Assembly: GCA_030390025.1 (NCBI GenBank)
Contig: CM059431.1
Span: 154,630,001-154,694,000, forward strand
From: Squalus acanthias
Taxonomy: Eukaryota
Length of the DNA stretch: 64,000 bases
Direction of reading: 5' to 3'
Position numbers and translations under genes: made by a program. The notes beneath the pieces were generated by a model, which did no database searches, was not told the origin of the DNA, and saw nothing but the letters and a program-made list of their open reading frames with translations. Below, in pieces: positions 1,601 to 63,581 of this stretch. The stretch's first letter is position 1. Each line of letters begins with the position of its first letter.

Positions 1601-2381
1601 AATCTGAGTTTCCAAAAAAGTAACTGTGAGCTTTCCACAATATTAAGGTCCTTAACTACCAATAATTATTCGTTTTGATCGTATCCTATACCTGTAACCG
1701 TAGCTTTGTGCTTTGATTTTGCACTTTCCTCTTTTCCATAGGTCAGTTGCTGGTTATAATGAGAGAAAGTCCAGTCGACCTGGGTGTCTCAAAGCTGATC
1801 TTTTCTATCTCTGTAACCTCTTCCAATCCTACAACCTGTCGAGATCCAGGCGCTGACCCAATTCTTACCTCTTGTGCATCCCCCATTTTCACCGCTCCAC
1901 CATTGATGGCCTTGGCTTACGCGGATTTGAACCTAAGCTCTGGAATTCACACCCGAAACCACTATGAATCTCTATCTCTCTCTTTTTTAAGACTCTCTTT
2001 AAATCTACTCTATGACCAAGCTTGGATCACCTGTCCTAATATCTTCCTCTGATGCTTGGTGTTACATTTTGTTTGATAACACTCCCTTTTCAACGCTTTG
2101 GGACGTTTTACTGCGCTAGTTCTTGTTGTTTCTTCTTAATTCTCATGGCAGGCACGCCTCCTGTCTGACTAATGGTGTATCTTCCTTTTATTCGCTTCTG
2201 GGATCTGGGCGACGCTGTCAAGGACAGCATTTATTGCTCATCCTTTATTTGTTTTCTGCATTAACTCCCGATTCTGAACGTTTCATGTCTCTCCGAAGGA
2301 AATGTTGAAATAGCAAAACGTTTCATATCCGAGTTTGTACATTACTTCTCTATATATGATTGCAATATCCATTCTTGTTAG

Positions 2382-2580
2382 GAAATCAGATCCCTAGCTG
2401 AATGTCACCGCAGAAACGATGCATGCCAACTCATTTTCGATACCGTGCTGGAAAAGGGGGCTCGGGGAGAAAGAACAATGTGGAACATATTGCATCAACT
2501 GCAGAACACCAAACCCAAGCTGAAAATGACATTGTCAGAGATAGAGAATAGATGTACAGAGGGAGAAAGTGATCTAGAAG
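2382..2580 (+). CDS. Exon B1 (C-terminal half of CARD-like repeat plus acidic linker)
   Basis: ttcttgttag|GAA...GAAG|gttagt, 199 nt: EIRSLAECHRRNDACQLIFDTVLEKGARGERTMWNILHQLQNTKPKLKMTLSEIENRCTEGESDLE+G. Confidence 0.85.
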
Positions 2581-5500
2581 GTTAGTAGTATCCAAATCTA
2601 ATTTTCCGTTAGTATAACAACGTTTTATATAAGATGAGCGCTATTTTTAACTCGTTTATGTGATGTGGGCGTCGCAGCCAATGCCAACATTTATTACCCA
2701 TCCCTAGTTGCCCTTGAGATGGTGGTGGTTAGCCGCTTTCCTGAAACGCTGCAGTATATGTGGTGAATGTTCTCCCACAATGCTTTTGGGGAGGCAGTGC
2801 CATGCGTTTGAGAAAGCGACAATGAAGGAACGGCGATATACTTCCAAGAGAGGATGGTGTGTTTCTTGGAGGGGAATTTGGAAGTAGTGGTGTTCCCAGG
2901 CGTTGATAATCTTGACCTACTAGTTGGTAGAAGTCGCGGGTTTCGGAGGTACTGGCGAAGAAGCCATGACGAGTTGCAGCAGTGCATCTTGTAGATGGTC
3001 CACTCTGCAGCCACTGTGTGGCAGTGGGGAAGGGACTGGATGCGACGAATTTTTACAGGCTTGTGTGAGTTTTATACTCGATTCCTTGAAAGACCTTTGG
3101 CACTGCCCGTTATAAATTTCAGCTTGAACAGAGCTACACTACTCCGAAGCAAATTCACCTTTTGTTCCACGGATCCGTGATGCAATCATTAACTGATCTA
3201 CTTTGTTTCCTTAAAACACAATTTGTGAAAGGCTCCTACTCATCCTCAAATCTCTCGCCTACCTTATCTGTAAAGTCGTCTTCACATCCCCTATTTTGCA
3301 CTCCAGTCCCTCCTCTCCCTTGCTGTGGTCTCCAGTGTACCAGTTCATCAGCTCCGAACTCCAGACATACAACTCATACACACCGACTGGAACTCAGTTC
3401 CTATGAGCTTCCATCTCTGTACTTCTTACTTATTAAAATAACGATCACATTTAGCTAGGCCTGCGTTGTTTCTCTTAACACCAGCAGAACCGTCAGCGTT
3501 AATTCAGAATACCACCTCTGTAAGGCACCACTGGCAATATTCACTGCTTGAAAGACACTCTGAAGAACTTCTGTCGCGATAGCATTTAGTTCAGAGTATT
3601 CACACTTTCATGACATTTATGTTAATCTGCTCTCGTTTACATCTTCACAGAAAATGCAGTTACTGAAATATTACCAACGTTGGCGAGCTACACGGATTTC
3701 CAGCTGCGCAGAGTTATCGTTTGCTATCGTCAGAGACTAGAACAGTCAATTGAAGAGGTAGTGGAGGCCGTTAGTCAGTCGCTTGTAGATGCAAACGTGC
3801 TTACTGAAACAAATCATAAGGTACGTTTCATCTATGTTAGAATCGTATAGCGTTAAATGAGTCAAACGATTGACTGTTTAGACAGAGAGTATTCTGTGCA
3901 AACCAACGATATAAGCAGTAAATAACGCTGTACTGGTTTAACTTCAGTAGACAATCTGAAATTAATGTCCTGTGCCAGTGATTAGAAATACTCTTCTGAG
4001 ATATCACTGTTAAATTTATTTTTCTTGAATTGTCAATGCATGCATTCTTAATAACAGAACAGGACCTCATGGACTAACCGTGATTTTTAATGACAGCCTA
4101 CTGTGCCCAATTGTCGTCAGCTGCTTCATGAATGACCTTCCTTCAAAAGGTCAGAGTTGGGGCTATTCGCTATTGCTTGCACAATGTTTAGTTCCGTTCG
4201 CAATTCCTCAGAAAATGAAAATGTCCATGCCCACACGCAGCATGACCCGGACAACATCCACGTTTGGGCCGATCAGTGACAGGTAACATTATGCTACGTA
4301 ATTTCAGTTACTGGCTACTTGCAACGAGAGAATGTGTAACCTATTACCATTGGGATTCAAACGCTTTACCATCGGCGTTCTACCACCATGAGTGTCTCGG
4401 TGATCACCAATAAAACCGGCTTTGAGAATGTACTGCCAAACATCTTTCAGTTAACGTTATAACAGTAGCCAAGACACTCGAAATGAGTAATTGAATAAGA
4501 CAAAACATGCAGCGCAAGCAACATACATCATCATTACAGTCCAATGGACAACCAGGTGCTAATTCAAAACAGTTATAATCACAAAATTCAAATCTCATGT
4601 GAATTAGTTAACTGAATCATACGAACTTAACAGTATGACATTTCCTACGATCACATGCGAGATGTTCCGCCCATTCTCCATCAAAACGGCCGTGCGCTTC
4701 GAATTGGATTGAGTCATTGCCGTTGGCGCGGACTGAAAAAATTCTGCTGGTCATATCCAATTGGTTTCTTCCATTCTACTTCTTGCTATGTCCCAACCCT
4801 ACCTCGGTCCAAAACTCAGGGAGGTCAACACACCTAGCATCTCCCGAGGCCACATCCTCTCACGTGAGGAATGATTAATGTCGCATTTCATAAAATAACC
4901 CTAGTCTAATCTATGATGTTTATCTGCTCCGTTTCTCCAATACCTCCTCAATCATGTAACACAAATGTAAACAGAAATAGTACTGTGAATAAAGCTGGGA
5001 ATTTCATGGTACAGTTTGTCTGAGGGGATGATATAATGATGTGATCGACGTGGCTTGTATAAGGGCAGGATTGGGAGATGAATTGTGCTCTGTTACCTGA
5101 AGATCATGGGAACTTAAGTTGTATTCGAATAGGGAGCATTCATCAATAACAGATTCAGTTGCAGAATTGGATCTTCAGGAATGATATAAGGAATGATTGA
5201 AAATAGAAATCTATAAGTTTGTCATAACACCATCATAACATAACTCTTTGTCTATAAGGCGTTCGTTGTCTTACACAACATAATGGAAACGTGATAGAAG
5301 AAGTGTTATATCGACAAATTGGAGATAATGCAGCAATAATAGTAACAGCGATTGGTGACAGTAAATATCCAAAATACAGAAGTAACCCAAGTGGGGAAGG
5401 GAGGCCGTGATGTCTGAAGCTTGTCCAGGACATTATTCAGCTGGTTAAAATTTTGGACGACAAGAAAGGATTGAGCATTTCATCTATTTCTCGAAATGGG

Positions 5501-8500
5501 CAGGGCTAGTCGGTGAGGTAAAGGTAGTGAAACACTACCAATGATATCGTTTGTATTCATATGAATTTTAAAATGTTTCCTTACAATCAAAACAATAAAT
5601 ATGTTAAAGGATTAAATCTAATGTCAACTAGGCTGACATGTAAGCTCAGTTATATTGAGGCCGATATGATCAAATAATATCGTGGGTAGGCAATCGGAAG
5701 ATACACAATATAGGTTTCCCATACAAGATACACAAATCACACGGGAATGAAAGCAGTGCAGGGCAGACAAGAATTACTTGGGCTTGCAGATATAATGATA
5801 TAAACAATAGATTTAAAATTGAATGTAGGAGTATTGGGCTAGTTATTTTAAACAAATGAAGGAAGCCTGGGTAATACAGTGAACATTTAATCGATGAATG
5901 AGTGGCCGGCGACAGAGTTCGAGACAATGATCATATTCCATATACACTTCAAGGAGAAATGGTACACAAAGTAAAGAGCTATGTCGAGATGAAATGGGAA
6001 TGGTTCATATAGGGGACGAAGGATTCACTGAAAAGCTGTTGGTACTGTTTCAGTTAATTAACGTGATACTTGGAATGAATGAAAAACTCATTGAAGTCAA
6101 TGGAAAAGAAAGTCAGACGCGAGTAAAAAGGGGCTGCCAATTCCCTTCTGCGCGTTTGACCCAATTGGCCAACAATGGCCAACACCTTGTGACCAATGTT
6201 TATGTTTGTCAACTTGTGCAATCTGAGTTTCTAAAAAACTAACAGAGAGCTTTCATAAATATTAAGTTGCTTAACTGCCAATAATTATTGGTTTTGATTA
6301 TATCCTACACCTGTATCCGTAGGTTTGTGCTTTGATTTTGCACTTTACCCTTTTCCATCAATCACTTCCTGGTTATAATGAGAGAACGATCAGTTGCCGT
6401 GGGTGTCTCAAAGCTGCTCCTTTCTATCACTGTAACCACTTCCAATACTACAACCTGGCGAGATCCAGGCGCTGGTCCAGTTCTGGCCACTTGTGCATCG
6501 CCATTTCCATCGCTCCACCATTGACGGCCTTGCCTTAAGCGGTTTAGACCCTAAGCTCTGGAATCCGCCCCCAGCGCCCCGCCCCCCCCGCCAAACCACT
6601 ATGAATCTCTATCTCTCTCTTCTCTAAGACTCTCTTTAAAGCTACTCTGTGACAAAGCTTTGGTCACCTGTCCTAATATCTTCATCTGATGCTTGGTGTT
6701 ACATTTTGCTTGATAACACTCCCTTTGCAACGCTTTGGGACATTTTACTTCGTTATATCTTGCTGTTTCTACATAATTCTCATTGCAGGCACGCCTCCTG
6801 TCTGACTAATGGCGTGTATTCCTTTTATTCGCTTATGGGATCTGGGCGTCGCTGGCAAGGACAGCATTTATTGCTCATCCCTTAATTGTTTTCTGCATTA
6901 ACTCCCGATTCTGAGCGTTTCATCTCTCTCCTAAGGAAAGCTCGATATAAAAAGGACGTTTCTTATCCGAGTTTGTACATTACTTATCTATATATGATTG
7001 CAATATACATTCTTGTTAGGAAATCAGATCCCTAGCTGAATGTCACCGCAGAAGCGATGCAACCCAACTAATTTTCGATACCGTGCTGGAAAAGGGAGCT
7101 CGGGGAGAAAGAACAATGTGGAACATATTGCTTCAACTGCAGAACACCAAATCCAAGCTGAAAATTTCGTTGTCAGAGATACAGAATGGAAGTACAGAGG
7201 GAGAAAGTGATCTAGGAGGTTGGTGGTATCCAAATCTAAATTTCCTTTAGAATGACAAAGTTTTATTTGAGGTGAGAATTTTATTTTATTCTTTTAAGTG
7301 ATGTCGGCGTCACTGGCAAGGCCAGCATTTATTGCCCATCCCTAGTTGCACTTGCGAAGGTGGTGGGTATCCGCTCCTGCTCATCCTAAAAGCCCTCCCC
7401 CACTTTATCTCTAAAATCGGCTTCACAACGCCTCTTTTACACTCCTGTCCGTCCTCTCCCCTTGCTGTGCTTTGCAGTCAACCAGTTCATCTGCTCCGGA
7501 CTCCAGACATAGAACTCATCCACACGGAGTTGAACACAGTTCCTATGAGCTTCCATCTCTGTATGTCTTACATATTTTAAGCACCGACCACATGTTGCAA
7601 AGCCTGGTTCGTTCTCTTAACTCCAGCAAAACAGTCAGCCTTAATTCTGAATTCCACCTCTGTAAGGCTCCACTGGCAGTGTCACCGCTAAAGAACTGCC
7701 GTCGCGATAGCAGTTAGTTCAGAGTATTCACTGTTTCATAGCGGAAATTTATGTTCATCTCTTCTCATTTATACCTGCAAAGAAAATGCAGTTACTGAAA
7801 TATCACTAACGTTGGCGAGCTACACGGATTTCCAGCTGCGCAGAGTTATTGTTTGCTACCGTCAGAGACTAGAACATTTAATTGAAGAATTCGTGGAGGC
7901 CGTTAGTCAGTCGCTTGTAGTTGCAAACGTACTTGCTGAAAAAGATCATAAGGTATGTTTCATATATGTTCGAATCGGATGATGTTAAATGAGTCAAACG
8001 ATTGACTGTTTCGACAGACTGTGTTCTGTGCAACTCAACTATATTAGCGGTACTTTACGCTGCACTTTATTGACTGAAATTGTTGTCCAGTGCCAGTGTA
8101 GTCAACATTTGAAGTACTCTTCTGAGATATCTCTCTGTTAAATTAATTTTTCATGAATTTTCAATGAATGTATTCATAATAAGAGAAGTTTCTAATGAAC
8201 TAACTGTGATTTTTTAACGCAGCCTGCTTGGCCCAATTATCGCCAGCTTCAATAATCTTCCTTCAAAAGCTCAGAGTTGGGGCTGTTCGCTGATGATTGC
8301 ACGGTGTTTAGTTCCATTCGCAAATCCTCAGAAAATGAAGCATTCCATGCGCACACGCAGCATGACCTAGATAACATCCATGTTTAGTCCGATAAGGGGC
8401 AGGTAACATTTATGCCACGGAGTACCAGGTACTGGCTACCTACAGCTGGAGAAAGTCTAACAAATTGCCATTGACATTCAATAGCTTTACCATCGGATTT

Positions 8501-11500
8501 CTACCACCATGAATGTCCTTGTGATCAGCAGTAAAACCAGCTCTGAGATTTCACTGCCAAACTTCTTGCAGTTAACGTAATTCCAGTAGCCAAGCACCTC
8601 GAAATGAATAATTGAATAAGACACAATGTGCAGCCTAAGCATCATGCATCCTCATTACAGCCCCAATGGACAACCTGGAGATAGATCAAAACTGTAATAA
8701 CCACATACTTCAAATCGCATGTGAATAAGTTAACTGACACATATGAACTTAACCGTATGAATTTCGCTACGATCACGGCCAAGATTTTCCACCCATTCTC
8801 CATCAAAACGAACGAGAATTTCCAATTGGATTGAGCCATTGCCGGTGGTGCGGATTTAAACAATTTCTGCTGAACATATCCATTCGTTTCTTCTATTCTA
8901 CTTCTGCTAATTCCCGCCCCTACTTTGGTCCAATGCTCAGGCACATGAAAAAAAACCGGCCTCTCCCGAGGCCACATCCTCTCCCCTCATGAATGCCATA
9001 ATATCCCAATCCTTAAAAAAAACCTAGTCTAATCTATGATGTTTATCTGCTCCCTTGCTCCAATAACTCCTCACTTATGTAACACAAATGTAATGAAACA
9101 TAATACTGTGAATAAAGCGTGTGAGTTCAATGAACAGTTTGTCTGAGGGTATGAAATAATGATTTGATCAACGTGGCTTATATAAGGGCAGGATTGGCAA
9201 ATGAAGTGCCCTGTTACCAGAAGATCATGGTAACTTAAGTTGTATGCAAATAGGGAGCAGTCATTAACAACAGATTCATTTGCCGCATTGGAGCTTCAGG
9301 ACTGATATAAGGAATGATTCAAAATAGAAATCTATAAGTTTGGGGTAACACAATAATAATGGAACACTTTTTCTATAAGGCGCTCGTTGTCTTACACCAA
9401 ATAGTGGAAAAGGGATAGAAGAAGAGTTATATAGACAAATTGGAGAAAATGCAGCAATAACATTAACGTTGATTTGTGACTTTAAATATCCCAAGAACAG
9501 AAGTAACATAAGTGGGGAAGGGAGGCCAGGCTTCTGAAGCTTTATCAGGACATTATTCAGATAGGTTCAATTTTAGGACAACAATAAATAATTGAGCATT
9601 TGATCCATTTCTAAAAATTAACAGCGGATACTCAGTGAGGTAAGTCTAGTGAAACATTCACCAATTCTATCGGTAGTATTCATGTGAATTAGAAAATGTC
9701 TCGTTAAAATCAAAAAAATAAATATGTTAAAGGAAAATATCTAATTTCAACGCGGCTAACATAGTAGCTCAGTTATATTGAGGCAGATATGATCAGATAA
9801 TATCGTGGTGAGGCAATAGAAAGATAGCCAATAGAAATTTACCATAAAAGATACACAAATCACACTTGACTGAAAGGAGTGCAGCAAAAACTAGAATTAC
9901 TTCGGCGTGCATAGAAAATGAAATAAAGAACAGATTTTACAATTGAATGTAGGAGTGCAGGGCTAGTTATATAAAACAAATGAAGGACCGCTTGATAATA
10001 TAGTGAATATATAATAGATGTTTGAGTTGCCGGTGACAGAGTTCAGACAATGATCACATTCCGTATAAACTTCAAAGAAAATAGTTACACAAACAACAGA
10101 GCTGCTTAGAGATGAAAAGGGAATGGTTCATATATATGACGAAGGATTCACTGAAAAGCTATTGGTACTGTTTCGATGAATGAAGGTGATACTTGGAATG
10201 AGTGAAAAACTCATTGAAGTCAAATGAAAAGAAAGTCAGAAGCGAGTAAAAAGTGCCGCCGATTCGCTTCAGAGCGTTTGACCCAGTTGTCCAACACTGG
10301 ACAACATATTGTGACGCATTATTTATGATTGTCAACTTGTGCAAACTGAGTTTCTAAAAATCAAGCTGTGAGCTTTCAAAACGATTATTGTCCTTAACAA
10401 CGAATAATTATTGATTTTGACCGTATCCCATAGCGGTAATCTTAAGTTTGTGTTTTGATTTGGCTCTTTACCCTTTTCAGTCAATCAGTTGCTGCTTAAA
10501 ATGAGAGAAAGTACAGTCGCCGTAGGTGTCTTAAAGCTGCTCCTTTCTATCTCTGTAACCTCTTCCAATCCTACAACCTGTCGAGAGCAAGGCGCTGGTC
10601 CTGTTCTGGCCTCTTGTGCATCTCCCATTTTCATCGATGCAACATTAATGGCCATGCCTTCAGCGGTTTAGATCCTAAGCTCTGGAATTCCCTCCCGAAA
10701 CTACTGTGAATCTCTAACTCGCTCTTTTCTAAGACTCTCGTTAAATCTACTCTATGACCAAGCTTTGGTCACCTGTCCTAATATCTTCCTCTGATCGTTA
10801 GTGTTACATTTTGTTTGATAACACTCCCTTTGCAAGGCTTTGGGACGTTTTACTACACTAGTTCTTTTTGTTTCTACTTAATTATCATTACAGGCACGCC
10901 TCCTGTCTGACTGATGACGTATCTTCCTTTCATTCGCTTATGGGATCTGGGCGTCGCTGGAAAGGCCAGCATTTATTGCTCATCCCATAATTGTTTTCTG
11001 CATTAACTCCCGATTCTGAGCGTTTCATCTCTCTCCTAAGGAAAGCTATAATTGAAAAGACATTTCCTATCAAAGATTGTACAATTCTTCTCTATATTTG
11101 ATTGCAATATACATTCTTGTTAGGAAATCAGATCCCTAGCTGAATGTCATCGCAGAAGCGATGCATCCCAACTCATTTTCGATACAGTGCTGGAAAAGGG
11201 AGCTCGGGGAGAAAGAACAATGTGGAACATATTGCTTCAACTGCAGAACACCAAACCCAAGCTAAACATGACATTGTCTGAGATACAGAATAGATGTACA
11301 GAGGGAGAAAGTGATCGAAAAGGTTAGTGGTGTCCAAATCTAATTTTCCGTTAGAATAACAAAGTTTTATTTAAGATGAGCACTATGTTTTACTCGCTTA
11401 TATGATGTGGTCTTCGCTGCCAAGGCCAGCATTTATTATCCATCCCTGGTTGCCCTTGAGAAGGTGGTGGTTCGCCGCTTTCCTGAAATGCTGCAGTCCA

Positions 11501-53500: not shown

Positions 53501-56500
53501 TCCTATATCTGTAACGGTAGCTTTGTGCTTTGATTTTCCACTTTACCCTTTTCCATCAATCGGTTCCTGGTTATAATGAGAGAAAGATCAGTTGCCCTGG
53601 GTGTCTCAAAGCTGCTCCTTTCTATCTCAGTTACCTCTTCCAATCCTACAACCTGTCAAGATTCAGACGCTGGGCTAATTCTTACCTCTTGTGCATTCCC
53701 CTTTTTCCATCGCTCCACCATTGACGGCCTTGCCTTAAGCGGTTTAGACCCTAAGATCTTGAATTCCCTCCCCAAACCACTATGAATCTCTAATCTCTCT
53801 TCTCTTAGACTCTCTTTAAATCTACTCTCTGACCAAGCTTTGGTCAACTGTCCTAATATCTTCCTCTGATGCTTGATGTTACATTTTGTTTGATAACACT
53901 CCCTTTGCAACGCTTTGGAACGTTTTACTACGCTAGTTGTTGTTGCTTCTAATTAATTATCATTGCGGGCGCTCCTCCTGTCTGACAAATGGCATATCTT
54001 CCTTTTATTCGATTATGGGATCTGGGCTTCGCTGGCAAGGACAGCATTTATTGACCGTCCCTTAATTGTTTTCTGCATTAACTCCCGATTCTGAGCATTT
54101 ATTCTCTCTCCTAAGGAAAGCTAGAAATAGAAAAGACGTTTCCTTTCCGAGTTTGTACATTACTTCTCTGTATATGATTGCAATATACATTCTTGTTAGG
54201 AAATCAGAACACTAGCTGAATGTCACCGCAGAAGCGATGCATCCCAACTTATTTTCGACACCGTGCTGGAAAAGGGAGCTCGGGGAAAAAGAACAATGTG
54301 GAACATATTACTTCAACTGCAGAACACCAAACCCAAGCTGAAAATGACATTGTCAGAGATGCAGAATAGAAATACAGAAGGAGAAAGTGATCTAGAAGGT
54401 TAGTGGTATCCAAATCTATATTTCCGTTAGAATAACAAAGTTTCATTTGAGGTGAGAATTTTATTTTATTCCTTTAAGGGATGTGGGCGTTACTGGCAAG
54501 GCCAGCATATATTGCACATCCCTAGTTGCACTTTCGAAACTGTTGGGTATCCGCTTTCTGAAACGCTGCAGTCGATGACTTGAAGTTACTCCCACAATAC
54601 TGTTGGGGAAGGAGTGCCATGAGTTTGACACAGCGACAATGAAGGAAAGGCGATATTCTTTAAAGTTAGGATGGTGTGTGAGTCGGAGGGGAAAATGGAT
54701 GTAGTGGTGTTCCCAGGCGCCTGCTGCTCTTGTCCTTCTCGGCGGTGGATCTCGTGGATTTGGGAAGTGCCGTCGAAGAAGCGTTAATGAGTATCCGCAG
54801 TGCATCTTGTAGATGGAACACTCTGCAGCCACGGTGTGGCAGTGGGGAAGGGACTGAATGCAACAAATTGATTCATGCTTGTATGAGTTTTATACTCGAT
54901 TTCTCAAATGAACTGCCCGTTATAAATTGCAGCTTGGACAGCGACCTCTACTCCTATTCAAATTCATCCTCAATTCCACGTTTCCGTGATGCCCAAAATA
55001 ACTGACCTACTATGATTTCTTATCCCATATTGATCAATTGTGAAATGCTGCTGCTCATCCTAAAAGCCCTCCCCCACTTTATCTCTAAAGTCGTCTTCAC
55101 ATCGCCTCTTTTACAATCCTGTCCGTCGTCTCCCCTTGCTGTGATCTCCAGTGTACCAGTTCATCTGCTCCGGACTCCAGACATAGAATTCATTCACACC
55201 GACTGGAACTCAGTTCCTATTAGCTTCCATCTCTGTACGTCTTACTTATGTTAAGCATCGACCACATGTTGCAAGGCCTGGTTCGTTTTCTTAACTCCAG
55301 CAAAGCAATTCTGCGTTAATTCTGAATTCCACCTCTGTAAGGCTCCACTGGCAGTGTCACCGCTAAACAACTGCTGTCGCGATAGCAGTTAGTTCAGAGT
55401 ATTCACTGTTTCATAGCGGAAATTTATGTTAATCTGTTCTCATTTACACCTTCAAAGAAAATGCAGTTACTGAACTATCACTAACGTTGGCGAGCTACAC
55501 GGATTTCCAGCTGCGCAGAGTTATCGTTTGCTACCGGCAGAGACTGGACCAGTCAATTGAAGAATTCGTGGAGGCCGTCAGTCAGTCGCTTGTCGATGCA
55601 AACGTATTTACTGAAACAGATCATAAGGTATGTTTCATATATGTTCCACTCGTATGGTGTTAAATGAGTCAAACGATTGACTGTTTAGACAGACTGTGTT
55701 CTGTACAACCCAACTGTATTAGCGATCCTTTACGCTGCACTTTATTTACTGAAATTATTGTCCAGTGCCAGTGTAATCAACATTTAATGTACTCTTCTGA
55801 GGTATCTCTCTGTTAAATTATTTTTTCAGCAATTTTCAATGAATGTATTCATAATAAGATAAGTTTCTCCTGGACTAACAGTGATTTTTTAATGGCAGCA
55901 TTCTTGGCACAATTATTGCCAGCTTCAATAATCTTCCTTCAAAAGCTCAGAGTTGGGGCAGTTCCCTGATGATTGTACGGTGTTTAGTTCCATTCGCAAA
56001 TCCTCAGAAAATGAAGCAGTCGATTCCCACACGCAGCTTGACCTAGACAACATCCATGTTTAGGCCGATAAGGGGCAGGTAACATTTATGCTGCGTAGTA
56101 CCAGGTACTGACTACCAACAGATAGAGAAAGTCTAACACATTGCCGTTGACATTCAATAGCTTTACTATCGGAGTTCTACCACCATGAGTGTCCCGGTGA
56201 TCACCAGTAAAACCAGCTGTGAGAATTCACTGCCAAACTTCTTGCAGTTAACGTAATTCCAGGAGCCAAGGCCCTCGAAATGAGTAATTGAATAAGACAC
56301 AATGTGCAGACTAAGCATCACGCATCCTCATTAAAACCCCAAATGGACAACCTGTAGATAGATCAAAACTGTAATAACCTCATACGTCAAATCGCATGAG
56401 AATAAGTTAACTGACACATACGAACTTAACAGTATGAATTTCCAACCGATCACGTCCGAGATTTTCCGCCCCTTCTCCATCAAAACGGCCGAGAATTTCC

Positions 56501-59500
56501 AATTGGATTGAGCCATTGACGGCGGATTTAAACAATTTCTGCTGAACATATCCAATTCGTTTCTCTATTCTGCTTCTTGCTAAGTCCATCTCCTACTTTG
56601 GTACAATGCTCAGGGACATCAACAAACCCGGCCTCTCCCGAGGCCACATCCTCTCACCTCATGAATGCCAGAATATCCAATTTCTTAAAGAAACCTAGAC
56701 TAAGTTATGATGTTTGTCTGCTCCATTTCTTCAATACCTCCTCACTTATGTAACATAAATGTAATGCAACATAGTAATGTGAATAAAGCTTGTGAGTTCA
56801 ATGAACACTTTGTCTGATGGTATGACATAACGATTTGATCACCGTGACTTATATAAAGGCTATATTGGGAAATGAAGTGCCCTGTTACCAGCAGATCATG
56901 GTAACTTAAGTTGTATGCCAAAAAGGGAGCAGTCATTAATAACAGATTAATTTGCCGCATTGGAACTTCAGGACTGATATAAGGAATGATTCAAAATAGA
57001 AATCTATAAGTTTGGGGTAACACAATAATAATGGAACACTTTTCTATAAGGCGTTCGTTGTTGTACACCAAATTGTGGAAAAGGGATAGGCGAAGAGTTA
57101 TATAGACAAATTGGAGGAAATGCAGCAATAACAGTAACGGTGATTGGTGACTTTAAATATCCCAAGAACAGAAGTGACATAAGTGGGGAGGGAGGCCAGG
57201 AATCTGAAGCTTTGCCAGGACATTATTCAGATAGGTACCATTTTAGGACAACAAGAAAGGATTGAGCATTTGATCAATTTCTAAAAATTGACAGCGGCGA
57301 CTCAGTGAGGTAAGTCTAGTGAAACATTCACCAATTATATCGTTATTATCCATATAAATTAGAAAATGTTTCGTTAAAATCAAAACAATAAATATGTTAA
57401 AGGAAAATATCTAATTTCAACGTGGCTAACATATTAGCTCAGTTATATTGAGGCAGATATGATCAGATAATATCGTGGTGAGGCAATAGAAAGATAGACA
57501 ATAGAAGTTTACCATATAAGGTACACAAATCACACGTGAATGAAAGGAGTGCAGCACAAACGAGAATTGCATGAGCGCGCATAGAAAATGAAATAAAGAA
57601 CATAATTTACAATTGAATGTAGGAGTGTAGGGCTAGTTATATAAAAAAAAAACAAGGACGTGTTGGTAATATAGTGAATATATATAATAGATGAATGAGT
57701 GCCCGGTGACAGAGTTCAGATAATGATCACATTCCGTATAAACTTCAAAGAAAATAGTTACAGAAATAGCTGAGCTGCTCAGAGAAGAAAAGGGAATGGT
57801 TCATATAGATGACGAGGAATTAACTGAAAACTATTAGTACTGCTTCGATGAATGAAAGTGATACTTGGAATGAGTGAAAAACTCATTGAAGTCAATGGAA
57901 AGAAAGTCAGATGCGAGTAAACTGGGCTGTCAATACGCTTCAGCGCGTTTGACCAAATTGACCAACAATGGCCAACAAACTGCGACCCATTTTTATGGTT
58001 GTCTTCTTGTGCAATATGAGTTTTTTTTAAACTATCAGTGAGCTTTGAAAAATATTATGTTGCTTAACTACCAATAGTTATTGGTTTTGATCGTATCCTA
58101 CATCTGCAAACGTAGATTTGTGCTTTGATTTTGCACTTTACCCTTTTCCGTCATTCAACTGCTGGTTATAATGAGAGAAAGGTCAGTTGCCGTGGGGGTC
58201 TCAAAGCTGCTCCTTTCTGTCTCTGCAACCTCTTCCAATCCTACAACCTGTCGAGATTCAGGCGTTGGCCCAATTCTTACCTCTTGTGCATTCCCCATTT
58301 CCATCGGTCCACCATTGATGGCCTTGCATTAAGCGGTTTAGACACTAAGCTCTGGAATTCCCTCCCCAAACCAGTATGAATCTCTAACTCTCTCTTCTCA
58401 AAGCCTCTTTTAAATCTACTCTGTGACCAAGCTTTGGTCACCTGTCCTAATATCTTCATCTGATGCTTGGTGTAACATTTTGTTTGATAACACTCCCTTT
58501 GCAACGCTTTGTGACGTTTTACTACGTTAGTTTTTGTTGTTTCTACTTACTTCTCATTGCAGGCACGCCTCCTGTCTGACTAATGGCGTAACTTCCTTTT
58601 ATTCGCTTATGGGATCTGGGCATCGCTGTCAAGGACAGCATTTATTGCTCATCCCTTAATTGTTTTCTGCATTAACTCCCGATTCTGAGCGTTTCATCTC
58701 TCTCCGAAGGAAAGCTAGAAATCGAAAAGACGTTTCTTATCCGAGTTTGTACATTACTTCTCTATATATGATTGCAATATACATTCTTGTCAGGAAATCA
58801 AATCCCGAGCTGAATGTCACCGCAGAAGCGATGCATCCCAACTCATTTTCGATACCGTGCTGGAAAAGGGAGCTCGGGAAGAAAGAACAATGTGGAACAT
58901 CTTGCTTCAACTGCAGAACACCAAACCCAAGCTGAAAATGACATTGTCAGAGATACAGAACAGATGTACAGAGGGAGAAAGTGATCTAGGAGGTTGGTGT
59001 TATCCAAATCAAATTTTCCGTTGGAATAAGAAAGTTTTATTTAAAGTGAGAATTATGTTTTATTCTTTTAAGGAATGTGGGCGTCACTGGCAAGACCAGC
59101 ATTTATTGCCCATCCCTAGTTGCACTTGCGAAGTTGTTGGGTAACCGCTTTCCTGAAACGCTGCAGTCGATGTGGTGAAGGTCAACCCACAATGTTGTTG
59201 GAGAGGGAGTGCCATGTATTTGACACAGCGACAATGAAGGAAAGCGATATACTTTAAAGTTAAGATGGTGTGTGAGTTGGAGGGGTAAATGGAAGTAGTG
59301 GTGTTCCCAGGCGCCTGCTGCTCTTATCCTTCCAGGTGGTAGATCTCGTGGATTTGGGAGGTACCGTCGAAGAAGACTTGACGAGTTCCCGCAGTGCCTC
59401 TTGTAGATGGAACATTCTGCAGCCACGATGTGGCTGCGGGGAAGGGACTGTATGCTACTAATTGATTCATGCTTGTATGAGTTTTATACTCGATTCCTTA

Positions 59501-62500
59501 AACGAACTTTGAAACTGCCCGTTATAAATTTCATCTTGGACAGGGACCACTACTCCTATTCAAATTCACCCTTAGTTCCACGGCTCCGTGATGCCCACAT
59601 TATCTGACCTACTTTGATTCCTTATCCCATATTGATCATTTGTGAAAAGCTCCTGCTCATCCTATATGCCCTCCCCCACTTTATCTCTAAAGTCGTCTTC
59701 AAATCCCCTCTTTTGCACTCATGTCACTCCTCTCCCCTTGCTGTGGACTCCAGTGTACAAGTTCATCTGCTCCGGACTCCAGACATAGACTTCTTTCACA
59801 CCGACTGGAACTCAGTTCCTATGAGCTTCCATCTCTTCACGTCTTACTTATTTTAAGCATCGACCATATGTTGCAAGGCCTGGTTCGTTCTCTTATTTCC
59901 AGCAAAACAATCTGCGTTAATTCCGAATTCCACCTCTGTAAGGCTCCACTGGCAGTGTCACCGCTAAACAACTGCTGTCGCGATAGCAGTTAGTTCACAG
60001 TATTCACTGTTCCATAGCGGGCATTTATGTTAATCTGTTCTCTTTTATAATTTCAAAGAAAATGCAGTTACTGAAATATCACTAACGTTGGCGAGCTACA
60101 CGGATTTCCAGCTGCGCACAGTTATCGTTTGCTACCGTCACAGACTAGAACAGTCAATTGAAGATTTCGTGGAGGCCGTTAGTCAGTCGCTTGTAGATAC
60201 AAACGTATTTACTGAAACAGATCATAAGGTATGTTTCATATATGCTGCAGTGGTATGGAGTTAAATGAGTCAAACGATTGACTGTTTAGACAGACTTTGT
60301 TCTGTGCAACCCAACTATATTAGCGGTACTTTATGCTGCACTTTATGAACTGAAATTATTGTCCAGTGCCAGTGTAATCAACATTTGAAGTACTCTTCTG
60401 AGATATCTCTCTGTTAAATTATTATTTCAGGAATTTTCAATGAATGTATTCATTATAAGAGAAGTTTCTCATGGACTAACAGAGATTTTTTAATGGCAGC
60501 CTTTTTGGCACAATTATCGCCAGCTTCAATAATCTTCCTTCAAAAGCACAGAGTTGGGGCTGTTCCCTGATGATTGTACGGTGTTTAGTTCCATTCGCAA
60601 ATCCTCAGAAAATGAAGCAGTCGAATCCCACACGCAGCATGACCTAGACAACATCCATGTTTAGGCCGATAAGGGGCAGGTAACATTTATGCCGCATAGT
60701 ACCAGGTAGTGGCTACCTACAGATGGAGAACGTCTAACACATTGCCGTTGACATTCAATGGCTTTACCATAGGAGTTCTACCACAATGAGTGTCTCGGTG
60801 ATCACCAGTAAAACCAGCTGTGAGAATTCACTGCCAAACTTCTTGCAGTTTCCGTAATTCCAGTAGCCAAGCCCCTCGAAATGAGTAATTGAATAAGACA
60901 CAATGTGCAACCTAAGGATCACGCATCATCATTAAAGCCACAAAAGGACAACCTGTAGATAGATCAGAACTGTAATAACCACATACGTCAAATCGCATGT
61001 GAATAAGTTAACTGACACATACGAACTTAACAGTATGAATTTCCCTACGATCACGGACGAGATTTTCCGCCCATTCTCCAACAAAACGGCCGAGAATTTC
61101 CAATTGGATTGAGCCATTGACGGCGGATTTAAACAATTTCTGCTGAACATATCCAATTCGTTTCTCTATTCTGCTTCTTGCTAATTCCCGCCCTTACTTT
61201 GGTCTAATGCTCAGGGACATCAACAAACCCGGCCTCTCCCGAGGCCACATCCTCTCACCTCATGAATGCCATAATATCCAATTTCTTAAAGAAACCTAGA
61301 CTAATCTATGATGTTTATCTGCTCCATTTCTTCAATACCTCCTCACTTATGTAACATAAATGTAATGCAACATAGTTTTGTGAATAAAGCTTGTGAGTTC
61401 AATGAACACTTTGTCTGATGGTATGACATAATGATTTGATCAGCGTGGCTTATATAACGGCTGGATTGGGAAATGAAGTGCCCTGTTACCAGAAGATCAT
61501 GGTAACTTAAGTTGTATGCCAAAAAGGGAGCAGTCATTAATAACAGATTAATTTGCCGCATTGGAACTTCAGGCCTGATATAAGGAATGATTCAAAATAT
61601 AAATCTATAAGTTTGGGGTAACACAATAATAATGGAACACTTTGTCAATAAGGCGTTCGTTGTTGTACATAAATTGTGGGAAAGGGATAGGCGAAGAGTT
61701 ATATAGACAGATTGGAGAAAATGCAGCAATAACAGTAACGGTGATTGGTGACTTTAAATATCCCAAGAACAGAAGTAACATAAGTGGGGAGGGAGGCCAG
61801 GAATCTGAAGCTTTGCCAGGACATTATTCAGATAGGTACCATTTTAGGACAACAAGAAAGGATTGAGCATTTGATCCATTTCTAAAAATTGACAGCGGCT
61901 ACTCACTGAGGTAAGTCTAGTGAAACATTCACCAATTATATCGTTAGTATCCATATGAATTAGAAAATGTTTCGTTAAAATCAAAACAATAAATATGTTA
62001 AAGGAAAATATATAATTTCAACGCGGCTAAAATATTAGCTCAGTTATATTGAGGCAGATATGATCAGATAATATCGTGGTGAGGCAATAGAAAGATAGAC
62101 AATAGAAGTTTACCATACAAGGTACACAAAGCACACGTGAATGAAAGGAGTGCAGCACAAACTAGAATTACTTGAGCGCGCATAGAAAATGAAATAAAGA
62201 ACAGAATTTACAATTGAATGTAGGAGTGTAGGGCTAGTTTTTAAAACAAACGAAGGACGTGTTGGTAATATAGTGATTATATATAATAGATGAATGTGCG
62301 CCCGATGACAGAGTTCAGTTAATGATCACATTCCGTATAAACTTCAAAGAAAATAGTTACAACAATAACAGAGCTGCTCAGAGATGAAAAGGGAATGTTT
62401 CATATAGATGACGAGGGATTAACTGAAAACTATTAGTACTGCTTCGATGAATGAAAGTGATACTTGGAATGAGTGAAAAACTCATTGAAGTCAATTGAAA

Positions 62501-63581
62501 AGAAAGTCATACGTGAGTAAAACGGGCCGCCGATTCGATTCAGAGCGTTTGGCCAGGTTGGTCAAAACTGGCCAACACCTTGTGACCCATTATTTATGGT
62601 TGTCAACTTGTGCAATCTGAGCTTCTAAAAACCAAGCTGTGCGCTTTCAAAACGATTATTGTCCTTAACAACGAATAATTATTGATTTGATCGGATCCCA
62701 TACCTGTAATCTTAAGTTTGTGCTTTGTTTTGCACTTGACCCTTTTCCATCAATCAACTGCTGGTTATAGTGAGAGAAAGTCCAGTCGCCGTGGGTGTCT
62801 CAAAGCTGATCCTTTCTATCACTTTCACCTCTTCCAATCCTACAACCTGTAAGATCCAGGCGCTGGTCCAGTTCTGGCCTCTTGTGCATCCCCCATTTTC
62901 ATCGCTGCACCATTCCTTCAGCGGTTTAGACCCTAAGCTCTGGAATTCCCTCCAGAATCGAACATGAATCTCTAACTCTCTCTTCTCTTAGACTCTCTTT
63001 AAATCTACTCTCTGACCAAGCTTTGGTCACCTGTCCTAATATCTGCCTCTGAAGCTTGGTGTTACATTCTGTTTGATAACACTTCCTTTGCAACGCTTTG
63101 GGACGTTTTACTGCGCTAGTTCTTGTTCTTTCTTTTTAATTCTCATTGCAGGCACGCCTCCTGTCTGACTAATGGCGTTATTTCCTTTTATTCGCTTATG
63201 GGATCTGGGCGTCGCTGGCAAGGATAGCATTTATTGCTCATCCCTTAATTCTTTGCTGCATTAACTCCCGATTCTGAGCGTTTCATCTCTCTCCTAAGGA
63301 AAGCTAGAAATAGAAAAGACGATTCTTATCCGAGTTTGTACATTACTTCTATATATATGATTGCAATATACATTCTTGTTAGGAAATCAGATCCCGAGTT
63401 GAATGTCACCGCAGAAGCGATGCTTCGCAACTCATGTTCGGTACCGTGCTGGAAAAGGGAGCTCGGGGAGAAAGAACAATGTGGAACATATTGCTTCAAC
63501 TGCAGAACACCAAACCCAAGCTGAAAATGACATTGTCAGAGATACAGAACAGATGTACAGCTGGAAAAAGTGAGCTAGGAG
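2382..63581 (+). CDS. Partial multi-exon gene encoding >=10.5 tandem 123-aa CARD/death-fold-like repeats (poly-CARD protein, possibly the N-terminus of an NLR); 21 exons in the window, 5' and 3' ends outside
   Basis: Alternating exons B (199 nt) and A (170 nt) with AG/GT sites and complementary phases. All 21 are open, totalling 3,889 nt. The amphipathic helical pattern with L..VLT...EI...A..L.DTV..KG resembles CARDs. Domain identity is by eye, not by HMM. Confidence 0.85.
2660..3030 (-). mobile_element. LINE 3'-end fossil in the short intron; present in each unit, approximate
   Basis: Minus-strand remnants such as ..SNSWHSLPNSIVG..P.GLQ.F.KAA.HHLLKGN, typical of a LINE ORF2 C-terminus, followed by a 3' UTR. 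Confidence 0.65.
3651..3820 (+). CDS. Exon A1 (N-terminal half of CARD-like repeat)
   Basis: cttcacag|AA...AAG|gtacgt, 170 nt: (E)NAVTEILPTLASYTDFQLRRVIVCYRQRLEQSIEEVVEAVSQSLVDANVLTETNHK. Confidence 0.85.
4095..4420 (+). mobile_element. LINE RT fossil in the long intron; present in each unit, approximate
   Basis: SCFINDLPS followed by frameshifted ttcgctgatgattgc (FADDC, clearest at 8286-8300) and cagcatgacctagacaacatc (Q.DLDNI). Confidence 0.7.
7020..7218 (+). CDS. Exon B2
   Basis: ag|...|gttggt, 199 nt: EIRSLAECHRRSDATQLIFDTVLEKGARGERTMWNILLQLQNTKSKLKISLSEIQNGSTEGESDLG. Confidence 0.83.
7783..7952 (+). CDS. Exon A2
   Basis: gcaaag|...|gtatgt, 170 nt: (E)NAVTEISLTLASYTDFQLRRVIVCYRQRLEHLIEEFVEAVSQSLVVANVLAEKDHK. 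Confidence 0.82.
11124..11322 (+). CDS. Exon B3
   Basis: 199 nt: EIRSLAECHRRSDASQLIFDTVLEKGARGERTMWNILLQLQNTKPKLNMTLSEIQNRCTEGESDRK; donor gttagt. Confidence 0.85.
12386..12555 (+). CDS. Exon A3
   Basis: cacag|...|gtatgt, 170 nt: (E)NEDTEILPTLASYTDFQLRRVIVCYRQRLEQSIEEIVEAVSQSLVDANVLAKTNHK. Confidence 0.85.
12616..16569 (-). mobile_element. CR1-clade LINE, degenerate, truncated at the ORF1 start; copy 1
   Basis: ORF1 fragments with a CxxC zinc knuckle and GDSL/SGNH esterase motif (IVIGDSIVRG, 15632-16568). ORF2 fragments with APE endonuclease (AVTETWL, SDH) and RT (GVPQGSVLG, KFADDTK), 12710-15500. Octamer tail (tcatagag)n at the left end. TSD CTGTTTA at 12609-12615 and 16570-16576. Confidence 0.95.
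19662..19860 (+). CDS. Exon B4
   Basis: 199 nt: EIGSLAACHRRSDASQLIFDTVLEKGARGERKMWNILLQLQNTKPKLKMTFSEIQNRYTEEESDLE; donor gttagt. Confidence 0.85.
20718..20887 (+). CDS. Exon A4
   Basis: cacag|...|gtatgt, 170 nt: (E)NADTEILIPMTSYTDFQLRRVIVCYRQKLEQSIEEVVEAVSQSLADANVLTETNHK. Confidence 0.85.
23996..24194 (+). CDS. Exon B5
   Basis: 199 nt: EIGSLAACHRRSDASQLIFDTVLEKGARGERKMWNILLQLQNTKPKLKMTFSEIQNRCTEEESDLE; donor gttagt. Confidence 0.85.
25144..29769 (-). mobile_element. Near full-length CR1-clade LINE of a second family, degenerate, with tandem-repeat 5' UTR
   Basis: ORF1 fragments (CSSC..CGNC, GDSIVRG) at 28184-29143. ORF2 endonuclease (IGITETWL, GDFN, SDH) at 27305-27922 and RT (KFADDTK) at ~26000. 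The host intron resumes at ~29770 (ggcacccctaacagag). Confidence 0.93.
29222..29769 (-). repeat. ~73-bp tandem repeat (about 7.5 copies) forming the CR1 5' UTR
   Basis: Unit ccgacactggcctctggaaaaaagcccgcgaaagtgagtttaaatactcactgtgctgctgctctctccgctc, lying directly upstream of ORF1 on the minus strand. Confidence 0.9.
29901..30070 (+). CDS. Exon A5
   Basis: ttcaaag|...|gtatgt, 170 nt: (E)NADTEISLTLASYTDFQLRRFIVCYRQSLEHSIEEVVEAVSQSLVDANVLTETNNK. Confidence 0.82.
32365..32563 (+). CDS. Exon B6
   Basis: 199 nt: EIRSLAECHRRSDASKLICDTVLEKGARGERTMWNILLKLQNTKPKLKMTLSEIENGCTEGESDLE; donor gttagt. Confidence 0.85.
33641..33810 (+). CDS. Exon A6
   Basis: cacag|...|gtatgt, 170 nt: (E)HADTEISLTLASYTDFQLRRVIVCYRQRLEQSIEEAVEAVSQSLVDANVLAEKNHK. 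Confidence 0.85.
35103..37770 (-). mobile_element. Penelope-like retroelement (RT plus GIY-YIG endonuclease), 5' truncated
   Basis: Single frame 37756->35537 broken by three in-frame stops. Motifs IKPADKGG, LPKIHK, DVSALYTSIP, GTAMG, RYIDDIF, CHGNLCKTC and VYLIRC...YIGET. Confidence 0.95.
38354..38543. mobile_element. Short fold-back (hairpin) insertion, probably derived from a Penelope pLTR
   Basis: Perfect 65-bp inverted arms at 38398-38462 and 38479-38543. Flanking 13-bp direct repeat GGAAGATAGACAA at 38341-38353 and 38544-38556. Absent from the other units. Confidence 0.85.
39021..39443 (-). mobile_element. tRNA-derived V-SINE (shark HE1-like) with CR1-derived 3' tail
   Basis: Minus-strand head ggtggcatagtggttagcact...gggttcgaatc (A and B boxes), V-domain gtgggtttcctccgggtgctccggtttcctccca, and a 3' end matching the CR1 tail at 25144-25230. 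Confidence 0.9.
40255..40453 (+). CDS. Exon B7
   Basis: 199 nt: EIGSPAEGHRRSDASQLIFDTVLEKGARGERTMWNILLQLQNTKPKLKMTLSEIQNRCTEGESDLG; donor gttggt; the same frame appears in ORF-track entry 40318..40605. Confidence 0.83.
41519..41688 (+). CDS. Exon A7
   Basis: ttcaaag|...|gtatgt, 170 nt: (E)NAVTEISLTLASYTDFQLRTVIVCYRHRLEQSIEEFVEAVSQSLVDTNVFTETDHK. Confidence 0.82.
44845..45043 (+). CDS. Exon B8
   Basis: 199 nt: EIRSRVECHRRSNASQLMLCTVLEKGARGERTMWNILLQLQNTKPKLKMTLSEIQNRCADGKSELG; donor gttagt. Confidence 0.83.
46110..46279 (+). CDS. Exon A8 (usual acceptor mutated AG->TG; in-frame CAG 9 nt downstream would start the exon at 46119)
   Basis: cttcactg/aaaatgcag|AT...AAG|gtatgt: (ENA)DTEILQTLASYTDFQLRRVIDCHRQRLEQSIEEVVEAVSQSLVDANMLTETKLK. 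Confidence 0.7.
46340..51055 (-). mobile_element. CR1-clade LINE copy 2 (duplicate of the 12616-16569 insertion), interrupted by a nested element
   Basis: Same insertion point (gactgttta|, 60 bp after an exon A), same 5' truncation (...ctccacg|), and colinear ORF1/ORF2 fragments at 47140-51054. Confidence 0.93.
46363..47127. mobile_element. Nested non-autonomous element (MITE-like, unclassified) in the CR1 3' tail
   Basis: Absent from CR1 copy 1. Flanked by AT on both sides. Degenerate terminal inverted repeats CGCCCAGATATTGGA vs GGCCCGAAAATTAGA (10/15). AT-rich core and an internal palindrome at 47012-47068. Confidence 0.7.
54200..54398 (+). CDS. Exon B9
   Basis: 199 nt: EIRTLAECHRRSDASQLIFDTVLEKGARGKRTMWNILLQLQNTKPKLKMTLSEMQNRNTEGESDLE; donor gttagt. 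Confidence 0.85.
55458..55627 (+). CDS. Exon A9
   Basis: ttcaaag|...|gtatgt, 170 nt: (E)NAVTELSLTLASYTDFQLRRVIVCYRQRLDQSIEEFVEAVSQSLVDANVFTETDHK. Confidence 0.82.
58794..58992 (+). CDS. Exon B10
   Basis: ttgtcag|...|gttggt, 199 nt: EIKSRAECHRRSDASQLIFDTVLEKGAREERTMWNILLQLQNTKPKLKMTLSEIQNRCTEGESDLG. Confidence 0.83.
60059..60228 (+). CDS. Exon A10
   Basis: ttcaaag|...|gtatgt, 170 nt: (E)NAVTEISLTLASYTDFQLRTVIVCYRHRLEQSIEDFVEAVSQSLVDTNVFTETDHK. Confidence 0.82.
63383..63581 (+). CDS. Exon B11
   Basis: 199 nt: EIRSRVECHRRSDASQLMFGTVLEKGARGERTMWNILLQLQNTKPKLKMTLSEIQNRCTAGKSELG; donor gttagt. Confidence 0.83.

Follow-up and report, generated by a model that had tools for sequence, protein, structure and literature searches.

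Seventeen tandem copies of a divergent CARD module ahead of a single NACHT exon in the genome of the shark Squalus acanthias

The subject of this report is a 64-kb stretch of the Squalus acanthias genome (GenBank assembly GCA_030390025.1, contig CM059431.1, here called C7; C7:154630001-154694000), referred to below as the window, and the tandem array of paired exons that it carries. When 324 kb around the window are read, the window is best explained as the central 64 kb of one ~143-kb gene on the plus strand, occupying at least C7:154573319-154716755, in which 17 copies of a two-exon module encoding a divergent CARD stand before a single NACHT exon. By its predicted NACHT and winged-helix domains the gene is a member of the NLR family, and its identity as a CARD-bearing NLR is solid. 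The sequence tips in favor of many of the modules being spliced together into a poly-CARD NLR with a maximum length of 2,776 residues; the extreme case, one ~2,800-residue polypeptide with 17 covalently linked CARDs before the single NACHT domain, is a possibility that must be held with considerable doubt.

Self-BLAST of the window reveals ~4.6 kb tandem units of 82-95% identity that are interrupted by insertions. On the plus strand, six-frame reading and tblastn locate 10 copies of one exon (exon A) and 11 of another (exon B), all 21 of which are open and follow one another in strict B, A, ..., B order from position 2382 to position 63581 of the window. Exon A is 170 nt long, with the acceptor ..ttctcatttacaccttcacag/AAAATG.. 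and the donor AAG/gtatgt, and exon B is 199 nt long, with the acceptor ..cattcttgttag/GAAATC.. and the donor GAAG/gttagt (gttggt in some copies). The codon at the B/A junction is split, one base coming from the end of exon B and the other two from exon A, so the A+B module (369 nt, or 123 codons) is symmetric, phase 1-1. Joined by their coordinates, the 21 exons of the window give 3,889 nt and 1,296 codons with no stops, and the B-to-A junction encodes an acidic sequence, ..CTEGESDLE/ENA(D/V)TE... A preliminary description, made from the letters of the window alone, had proposed 21 exons of these two lengths and phases in a single frame, had written out the junction sequence, and had held that the array continues past both edges of the window; the exon boundaries and the stop-free frame agree with it, ..TEGESDLE/ENA(D/V)TE.. 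is found at the module junction, and the array extends in both directions.

A hidden Markov model (HMM) built from the modules places 17 A+B modules at C7:154573319-154710688 in strict A, B alternation, and finds no other module-like exons on either strand between these two positions. Across the 324 kb searched, all 34 exon copies (17 A and 17 B, strictly alternating) are open, with a GT donor in 34 of 34 and an AG acceptor in 33 of 34. Modules 3-17 share 78-100% mutual protein identity; modules 1-2 are older, at 58-72%. An intact NACHT exon with a 614-codon open frame (C7:154712649-154714368) follows 1.9 kb after the last exon B, in the flank where the preliminary description had proposed to look for one. 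Its acceptor (L023:2647-2648) is in phase 1, which fits exon B, and coincides with the point at which the alignment to related proteins starts. The P-loop motif GSSGIGKST is visible in its translation, which scores 113.2 bits against the Pfam NACHT model (cut-off 26.7), 29.6 bits against NOD2_WH (cut-off 23.1), and, slightly under the cut-off of 33.1, 30.5 bits against NLRC4_HD2. After the NACHT exon come three short exons with canonical splice sites and then a TAG ending at 154716755; these exons share 57-59% identity with the C-terminal ends of two related shark proteins, P0003 (Mustelus asterias) and P0053 (Scyliorhinus torazame). The C-terminal tail is very short (~110 residues). No LRR was detected by Pfam in the two longer 3' exons, each scanned alone, and by eye the tail resembles ribonuclease-inhibitor-type LRRs. 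Counted from the exon A of module 1, the frame runs through 38 exons and 2,776 codons, uninterrupted by any stop before the final TAG. An in-frame methionine in module 1 stands at the place where a relative from S. torazame (P0002) starts, which is a hint only.

The module holds as a divergent CARD on sequence links and a predicted structure, even though automatic naming has put "PYD" into the names of related proteins. A profile built from the 17 exon-B peptides and compared with 1.84 billion representative proteins matches 45 proteins at E <= 1e-3; among ten checked by name, nine are from sharks or rays and one is from a cod. The cod protein (P0010, Arctogadus glacialis CAL8349490.1) is matched at E 5.3e-9 and contains eight Pfam CARDs (304.8 bits, 9.3e-93), and hhalign of the 17 conceptual modules against these eight CARDs gives a probability of 87% and an E-value of 3.8e-6 over 64 columns. 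Whole modules of the shark and ray relatives exceed the Pfam CARD cut-off of 23.9 bits in P0006 (30.3 bits) and P0053 (40.4 bits) and lie just under it in P0004 (22.9) and P0005 (23.4). AlphaFold was applied to module 2 of P0004 (Cetorhinus maximus), which is 55% identical, with an alignment that included the window exons; the model has a predicted local distance difference test score (pLDDT) of 90.1 and a predicted template modeling score (pTM) of 0.81, and consists of a leading N-terminal helix followed by six helices. The top 11 Foldseek matches of this model are all CARDs (Apaf-1, NLRC4, MDA5/MAVS, a zebrafish NLRP1-like protein, RIG-I, ARC, and caspase-1), with probabilities of 0.80-1.0. 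In VIA-align, a search independent of Foldseek, the best matches, with Z of 8-12 and a root-mean-square deviation (rmsd) of 1.4-2.2 Å over 80-96 residues, are the CARDs of SP100, ARC, NLRC4, NOD1, Apaf-1, caspase-1, and NLRP1; going by the titles and the ranges aligned, the first 33 rows (Z 12.0-8.1) include 31 that are CARDs or N-termini containing one, the highest-ranking death domain is 34th (Z 8.1), and death and death-effector domains fall at Z 6-8. A pyrin domain, which the "NLRP3-like" names of the relatives would imply, is not favored, as there is no pyrin domain among the 50 VIA-align rows listed.

Some of the results on the module speak against the CARD assignment or limit its reach. 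Window exon A alone, a half-domain, scores only 12.8 bits (E 0.12) against the Pfam CARD model, below the cut-off, and exon B, likewise scanned as a half-domain, has no Pfam CARD match. The modeled structure is that of a 55%-identical relative and not of the window's own spliced module. The Foldseek E-values are only 0.4-1.1 despite the high probabilities, and VIA-align itself warns that Z below ~13 is common among helical bundles, so the fold match counts only together with the sequence links. Where two neighboring modules of P0004 were modeled together, both modules fold and the linker has a pLDDT below 50; the overall pTM of 0.44 means that no confident CARD-CARD packing is predicted between them. 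This model suggests separately folded modules arranged as beads on a string. A word-indexed protein search with one exon B returned no matches, and PDB sequences searched with profiles of exon B and of the whole module gave nothing meaningful. The death-fold and CARD assignment of the preliminary description is nevertheless upheld by the profile links, the Pfam CARD matches in relatives, and the AlphaFold model taken together: its proposed Pfam check succeeds in relatives P0006 and P0053, the half-domains of the window being too short for it, and its proposed fold check, carried out on the relative, yields a six-helix model whose best matches are CARDs.

The case for joint splicing of the modules lies in the arrangement of the splice sites. 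Downstream of an exon B, the first acceptor reached is that of the following exon A, mostly at a distance of 0.6-1.3 kb, and since each exon has its own acceptor and donor, ordinary exon definition predicts that the modules are included in series; the gene models of relatives do splice neighboring modules in this way. Because the module is symmetric, skipping any one of them keeps the frame, and the number of modules may vary between isoforms. Alternative first exons of the protocadherin kind were considered and rejected, 16 of the 17 exon A copies having kept an acceptor with a pyrimidine tract.

Selection on the copies was estimated from the 15 similar modules, using FastTree trees and Fitch counting. 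The exons of these modules differ at 8-9% of sites and their 400-nt flanks at 11-33%, the upper end of this range coming from non-alignable insertions. Changes per site number 0.548 in exons and 1.296 in introns, a ratio of 0.42. No indel event falls in the 372 exon columns, compared with 132 in the 1,325 columns of flanking intron, from which ~37 are predicted for the exons (Poisson P ~8e-17, a crude figure). Likewise, the 204 substitutions inferred in exons should have created 8-10 stop codons and created none (P 3e-5 to 4e-4). Frame and splice sites have clearly been kept in every copy, and the residues are only loosely constrained or partly diversifying, as immune receptors commonly are. 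Upstream of the region read, at C7:154370556-154462950, lies a cluster of these exons that is a decayed array and serves as a natural internal control: it contains exon A copies with TAG, one exon A split in two and two truncated, and one exon B with both TGA and TAA. No closely related NACHT exon is among those listed after it, and the defects in this nearby cluster show that decay is visible where it is allowed.

Against a single long gene whose modules are spliced in series stand several observations of different kinds. For the 15 similar modules the ratio of nonsynonymous to synonymous change (dN/dS) comes to 0.69, and rates of change hardly differ between the three codon positions (0.52, 0.52, and 0.61 per site), so protein-level constraint on each copy is weak; moreover, poorly alignable introns may account for part of the contrast between exons and introns. 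Exon A of module 13 (46110-46279 in the window) has TG in place of the AG acceptor dinucleotide, and the nearest downstream AG lies 8 nt inside the exon, so that splicing there would put the frame out by 8 nt. Certain introns reach 6-22 kb and are rich in long interspersed nuclear elements (LINEs). The run search listed no RNA sequencing runs that contain the NACHT exon. Three small runs from the same species (RNA type guessed) were compared with positions 2001-22000 of the window; their depth falls almost wholly on interspersed repeats, exon bins have a depth of 0-12, and no joint with exon-exon ends is among the 15 listed of 44 joints, a result that is uninformative either way. As for the ends of the gene, which the preliminary description had proposed to seek in the flanks, the terminal exons and the TAG were found at the 3' side, but no 5' coding exon or promoter was identified by tblastn with the N-termini of P0003, P0053, P0004, and P0014 or by an HMM scan of the open frames in the 324 kb.

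The main rival holds that the array is transcribed as a reservoir of cassettes from which each mRNA keeps one or a few modules, the 17 copies forming a menu of variant CARDs or of CARD numbers; it is judged rather unlikely. The phase 1-1 symmetry that permits skipping also leaves any subset of modules in frame, and the exon differences of 8-9%, together with the dN/dS of 0.69, would translate into protein variety. In addition, annotated relatives reach no more than five modules among the 244 proteins fetched, the dead acceptor of module 13 means that its exon A must be skipped along with its exon B, and a reservoir of this kind would likewise keep all copies under selection. However, there is no sequence mark of mutually exclusive exons, every exon has an acceptor and a donor with no internal promoters visible, which points to inclusion by default exon definition, and the gene models of relatives include all neighboring modules in series.

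Silent duplicates, like mis-assembly, are less likely than this reservoir. On the silent-duplicate account, use is confined to the module or modules adjoining the NACHT exon, and those farther upstream are unexpressed products of unequal crossing-over that look intact through youth or through gene conversion from the used copy, an improbable account even though the weak per-copy constraint (the same dN/dS and flat codon-position pattern), the lost acceptor in this array, the TAA in one exon B of a 99%-identical paralogous array, and the fast turnover shown by paralogous array lengths of 8, ~13, and 17 are what it would lead one to expect. The copies are not young, given their exon differences and the 132 intron indel events against none in exons, and the complete lack of stops departs from the 8-10 expected. 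Conversion able to erase defects should also homogenize the exons, yet the exons are not homogenized, and real decay is displayed in the nearby cluster for which no closely related NACHT exon is listed.

The array is one of many related loci. Massive amplification of both exon B and the NACHT exon extends over C7:153.7-159.7 Mb, where many genes have a single exon B 2-4 kb upstream of the NACHT exon. Arrays that stand directly before a NACHT exon contain at least 13, at least 17, at least 8, at least 5, and at least 3 modules (lower-bound counts), and there are further runs of 8-15 modules, each without an assignable NACHT. Two paralogous arrays, of 8 and ~13 modules, end in NACHT exons that are 94% and 99% identical, respectively, to the present one; all 8 modules of the 94% paralogue are open, and the TAA mentioned above lies in the array with the 99%-identical NACHT exon. 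Unequal crossing-over would have amplified the module to 17 copies, 15 of them similar and two, on the 5' side, older and divergent.

A colinear copy of the array and its NACHT exon lies at C7:153719773-153800317, ~912.6 kb upstream, and is 98.7-99.1% identical to the array of the window in the three 3.2-kb stretches compared, which is too close for measuring selection. This copy either arose by segmental duplication very recently or reflects a haplotype assembled twice. As a possible uncollapsed haplotype or false duplication, it lends something to the idea that a shorter repeat was mis-assembled and the length of the array inflated. That idea is nonetheless very improbable, because the units differ from one another by 5-18% and have different LINE insertions and intron lengths, as distinct sequences do, and no N occurs in the 324 kb (counted in the 64-kb window and the surrounding 204 kb, and judged by eye in the outer 120 kb).

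Two orphan exons resembling exon B were also observed in the neighborhood of the array. One, at C7:154556836-154557030 (L030), lies 16.5 kb upstream of module 1 and belongs to a distant subfamily (43% identity); it has an acceptor and a donor and no exon A partner, and it is all that the searches for a 5' exon brought up. The other, at C7:154791545 (L026), precedes the next locus by 13.4 kb. These two orphan copies are 96% identical over 2.3 kb, the second differing in frame at its 3' end, and the orphan exon is probably a relic carried by segmental duplication.

Relatives of the array were surveyed in a sample of 244 fetched proteins of at most 2000 or at most 3070 amino acids (aa), for which one search supplied the best 120 of 557 matches. 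The close relatives are all shark or ray "NLRP3-like" proteins, and the NLR family with this module is, as far as the sequences compared reach, seen only in sharks and rays. The preliminary description had likened the module to the N-terminal domain of expanded elasmobranch NLRs, and this likeness is borne out by the names and origins of the relatives and by the NACHT exon 1.9 kb after the last module. The best database protein is 50-51% identical to the NACHT exon, so the annotation of this genome itself is absent from the protein collection. The module is present in 203 of the 244 proteins, as one copy in 159, two in 37, three in 5, four in 1, and five in 1; in these 203 shark and ray proteins multi-copy modules mostly stand directly before the NACHT domain. 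Two of the two-copy proteins are evidently fused neighboring genes, their modules being ~1,000 residues apart. The largest number, five modules and a NACHT domain, occurs in P0053 of Scyliorhinus torazame (1405 aa); Mustelus asterias XP_078087540.1 has three modules and a NACHT domain, and many Hypanus, Hemitrygon, and Mobula models have 2-3 modules. These shark and ray models resemble the present gene in having the same module (46-55% identity) directly before the NACHT, winged-helix, and HD2 domains, in the form of the module junction (..E/ENxDT..), and in a NACHT exon that is 47-50% identical. They differ in having five copies at most (in this size-limited sample) against 17 here, and they are predicted, uncharacterized proteins on which the literature search brought up no paper. 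Tandem effector modules in this NLR family are therefore already in databases, and it is 17 intact copies that lie far outside the range seen; the suggestion in the preliminary description that the architecture may be undescribed was overstated with respect to tandem modules as such, of which public models have 2-5.

Hydrophobic, transmembrane-looking segments were observed beside the modules of some relatives, namely P0004, P0053, and P0003. In P0004 (342 aa) the segment ..LISVMAEFLLGALFEIIAIICCF.. comes after two modules and is modeled as one long helix (263-298), and in P0053 a similar segment lies between modules 4 and 5. Membrane-anchored multi-CARD proteins without a NACHT domain may exist in sharks; a tblastn search of the present array found the transmembrane-type exon of these relatives to be absent from it.

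Comparison with better-known systems places the array among signaling receptors with repeated N-terminal domains. NOD2, RIG-I, and MDA5 similarly carry repeated N-terminal CARD-fold signaling domains on an oligomerizing sensor, and the tandem CARDs of RIG-I and MDA5 are among the structural matches of the P0004 module. Each of these three proteins has two CARDs that are unlike each other, the pair in RIG-I packing rigidly, whereas the present array has 17 copies that are nearly equal and are joined by acidic linkers ~10 residues long. The CARDs that nucleate filaments are close in fold to the P0004 module (NLRC4 filament, 6mks, Z 11.6, rmsd 2.1 Å over 87 residues; caspase-1, 9wz6, Z 10.6; NLRP1, 3kat, Z 10.3), but the CARDs of NLRC4, NLRP1, ASC, and caspase-1 are only 8-19% identical in sequence, and their chains have one CARD each and become multivalent only by oligomerization. 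Cod P0010 is another predicted protein of a vertebrate in which many CARDs follow one another; it differs in being a teleost protein of an unrelated family, known from prediction only, with canonical CARDs of ~90 aa, two death domains, and no NACHT domain.

A further parallel is offered by the NLR-B30.2 family of zebrafish. In the passages of Howe et al. (2016, PMC4852459) that deal with its N-terminus, this family is described as having exon-encoded peptide repeats of ~30 aa that are "extensively duplicated" before the NACHT exon, and as a lineage-specific expansion with exon shuffling between genes, the repeat being confined to those NLRs. As far as these passages go, the likeness lies in a lineage-specific NLR expansion with duplicated exon-encoded repeats before NACHT, and the difference in the repeat itself, which there is a ~30-aa motif on one exon and here is 123 aa long, divided between two exons, and of the death fold. 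The NLR passages of the whale shark genome report (PMC8455134) describe an expanded novel NLR family near the NLRPs and, within those passages, do not mention repeated CARDs. A full-text literature search, with subscription journals outside its coverage, found no paper on poly-CARD NLRs in cartilaginous fishes.

The positions of the individual exons in the window, all on the plus strand, are as follows. The exon A of module 5 lies just upstream of the window (C7:154629029), and its exon B, open and with an AG acceptor and a GT donor, is at 2382..2580. Module 6 comprises exon A at 3651..3820 and exon B at 7020..7218, and after a short B-to-A intron of 0.56 kb module 7 follows with exon A at 7783..7952 and exon B at 11124..11322. 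In module 8, exon A (12386..12555) is separated from exon B (19662..19860) by a 7.1-kb intron with an antisense LINE fragment. Module 9 has its exons at 20718..20887 and 23996..24194, and is followed by a B-to-A intron of 5.7 kb, containing an antisense LINE with an endonuclease open reading frame (ORF) and a 73-bp tandem repeat, which leads to module 10 (exon A 29901..30070, exon B 32365..32563). Between exon A (33641..33810) and exon B (40255..40453) of module 11 lies an antisense reverse-transcriptase (RT) ORF. The remaining exons are those of module 12 (A 41519..41688, B 44845..45043), module 13 (the open exon A with the TG acceptor, 46110..46279, and exon B 54200..54398), module 14 (A 55458..55627, B 58794..58992), and module 15 (A 60059..60228, B 63383..63581), past which the gene continues beyond the window with modules 16-17.

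The introns contain a variety of inserted elements. Antisense LINE fragments lengthen those at 12600-17300, 24300-29800, 35100-39400, and 46400-51100; the endonuclease ORF is at 27308-27928 and the RT ORF at 36467-37516, both on the minus strand. In the intron of the last module, just outside the window, there is a near-full-length ORF of 988 codons for endonuclease and RT (L017:731-3694, minus strand). Tandem Repeats Finder, run with a period limit of <=500, reports only the 73-bp repeat at 29224-29768 (7.4 copies, 81% matches), which borders a LINE insertion and lies shortly before exon A of module 10. In addition, one repeated minus-strand element with an open frame of 110-150 codons (..SIQSLPHCHTVAAE.TIYKMHCGNSS..) recurs in each B-to-A intron, with copies at 2697-3071, 11401-11793, 19986-20387, 24320-24721, 32722-33093, 40548-40943, 45141-45593, 54464-54889, and 59106-59483. 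One copy scanned against Pfam gave no match, a 75%-identical copy occurs outside the array, and bins that contain the element reach depths in the thousands in the three sequencing runs. It looks like a high-copy interspersed repeat carried along with the unit.

In the mechanism proposed, the N-terminal effector would be a divergent CARD of ~123 residues encoded on two exons, present in 17 copies before one exon for the NACHT, winged-helix, and HD2 domains and a short LRR-like tail, and splicing would yield a NACHT receptor in which as many as 17 CARDs are joined by short acidic linkers. CARD signaling proceeds by nucleated polymerization, and known vertebrate sensors carry one or two CARDs per chain; NLRC4, NOD2, and RIG-I nucleate CARD assemblies with one or two. 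By analogy with these three, oligomerization of the NACHT domain upon ligand binding would gather dozens of flexibly linked CARDs at very high local concentration, where they would nucleate a helical CARD-CARD assembly that takes in a CARD-bearing adaptor, kinase, or caspase acting downstream, and the copy number of the module would set valency and threshold. Known CARD filaments have roughly four CARDs per helical turn, and if the full-length reading is true, a single molecule could supply several turns of a filament and act as a seed or platform tuned by copy number. The preliminary description had likewise supposed more than ten covalently linked CARDs in one protein, acting as a filament seed, a scaffold, or a multivalent decoy; the linkage is a prediction and these roles are conjectural.

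If this is so, a receptor with 8-17 CARDs per chain would allow a direct test of valency, linker length, and copy number in death-fold nucleation, for which the three paralogues of differing copy number would form a natural dosage series. If instead most copies are skipped, the locus is still a clear array of domain cassettes kept open by selection. Exons of this class are likely to be lost by repeat-masking and by gene predictors. For the family as a whole, the array would represent NLR evolution by amplification of an effector domain inside a gene, as opposed to amplification of whole genes, and unequal crossing-over (arrays of 8, ~13, and 17) would adjust signaling valency on short evolutionary timescales, a mode of tuning an innate receptor that is not described for any vertebrate NLR.

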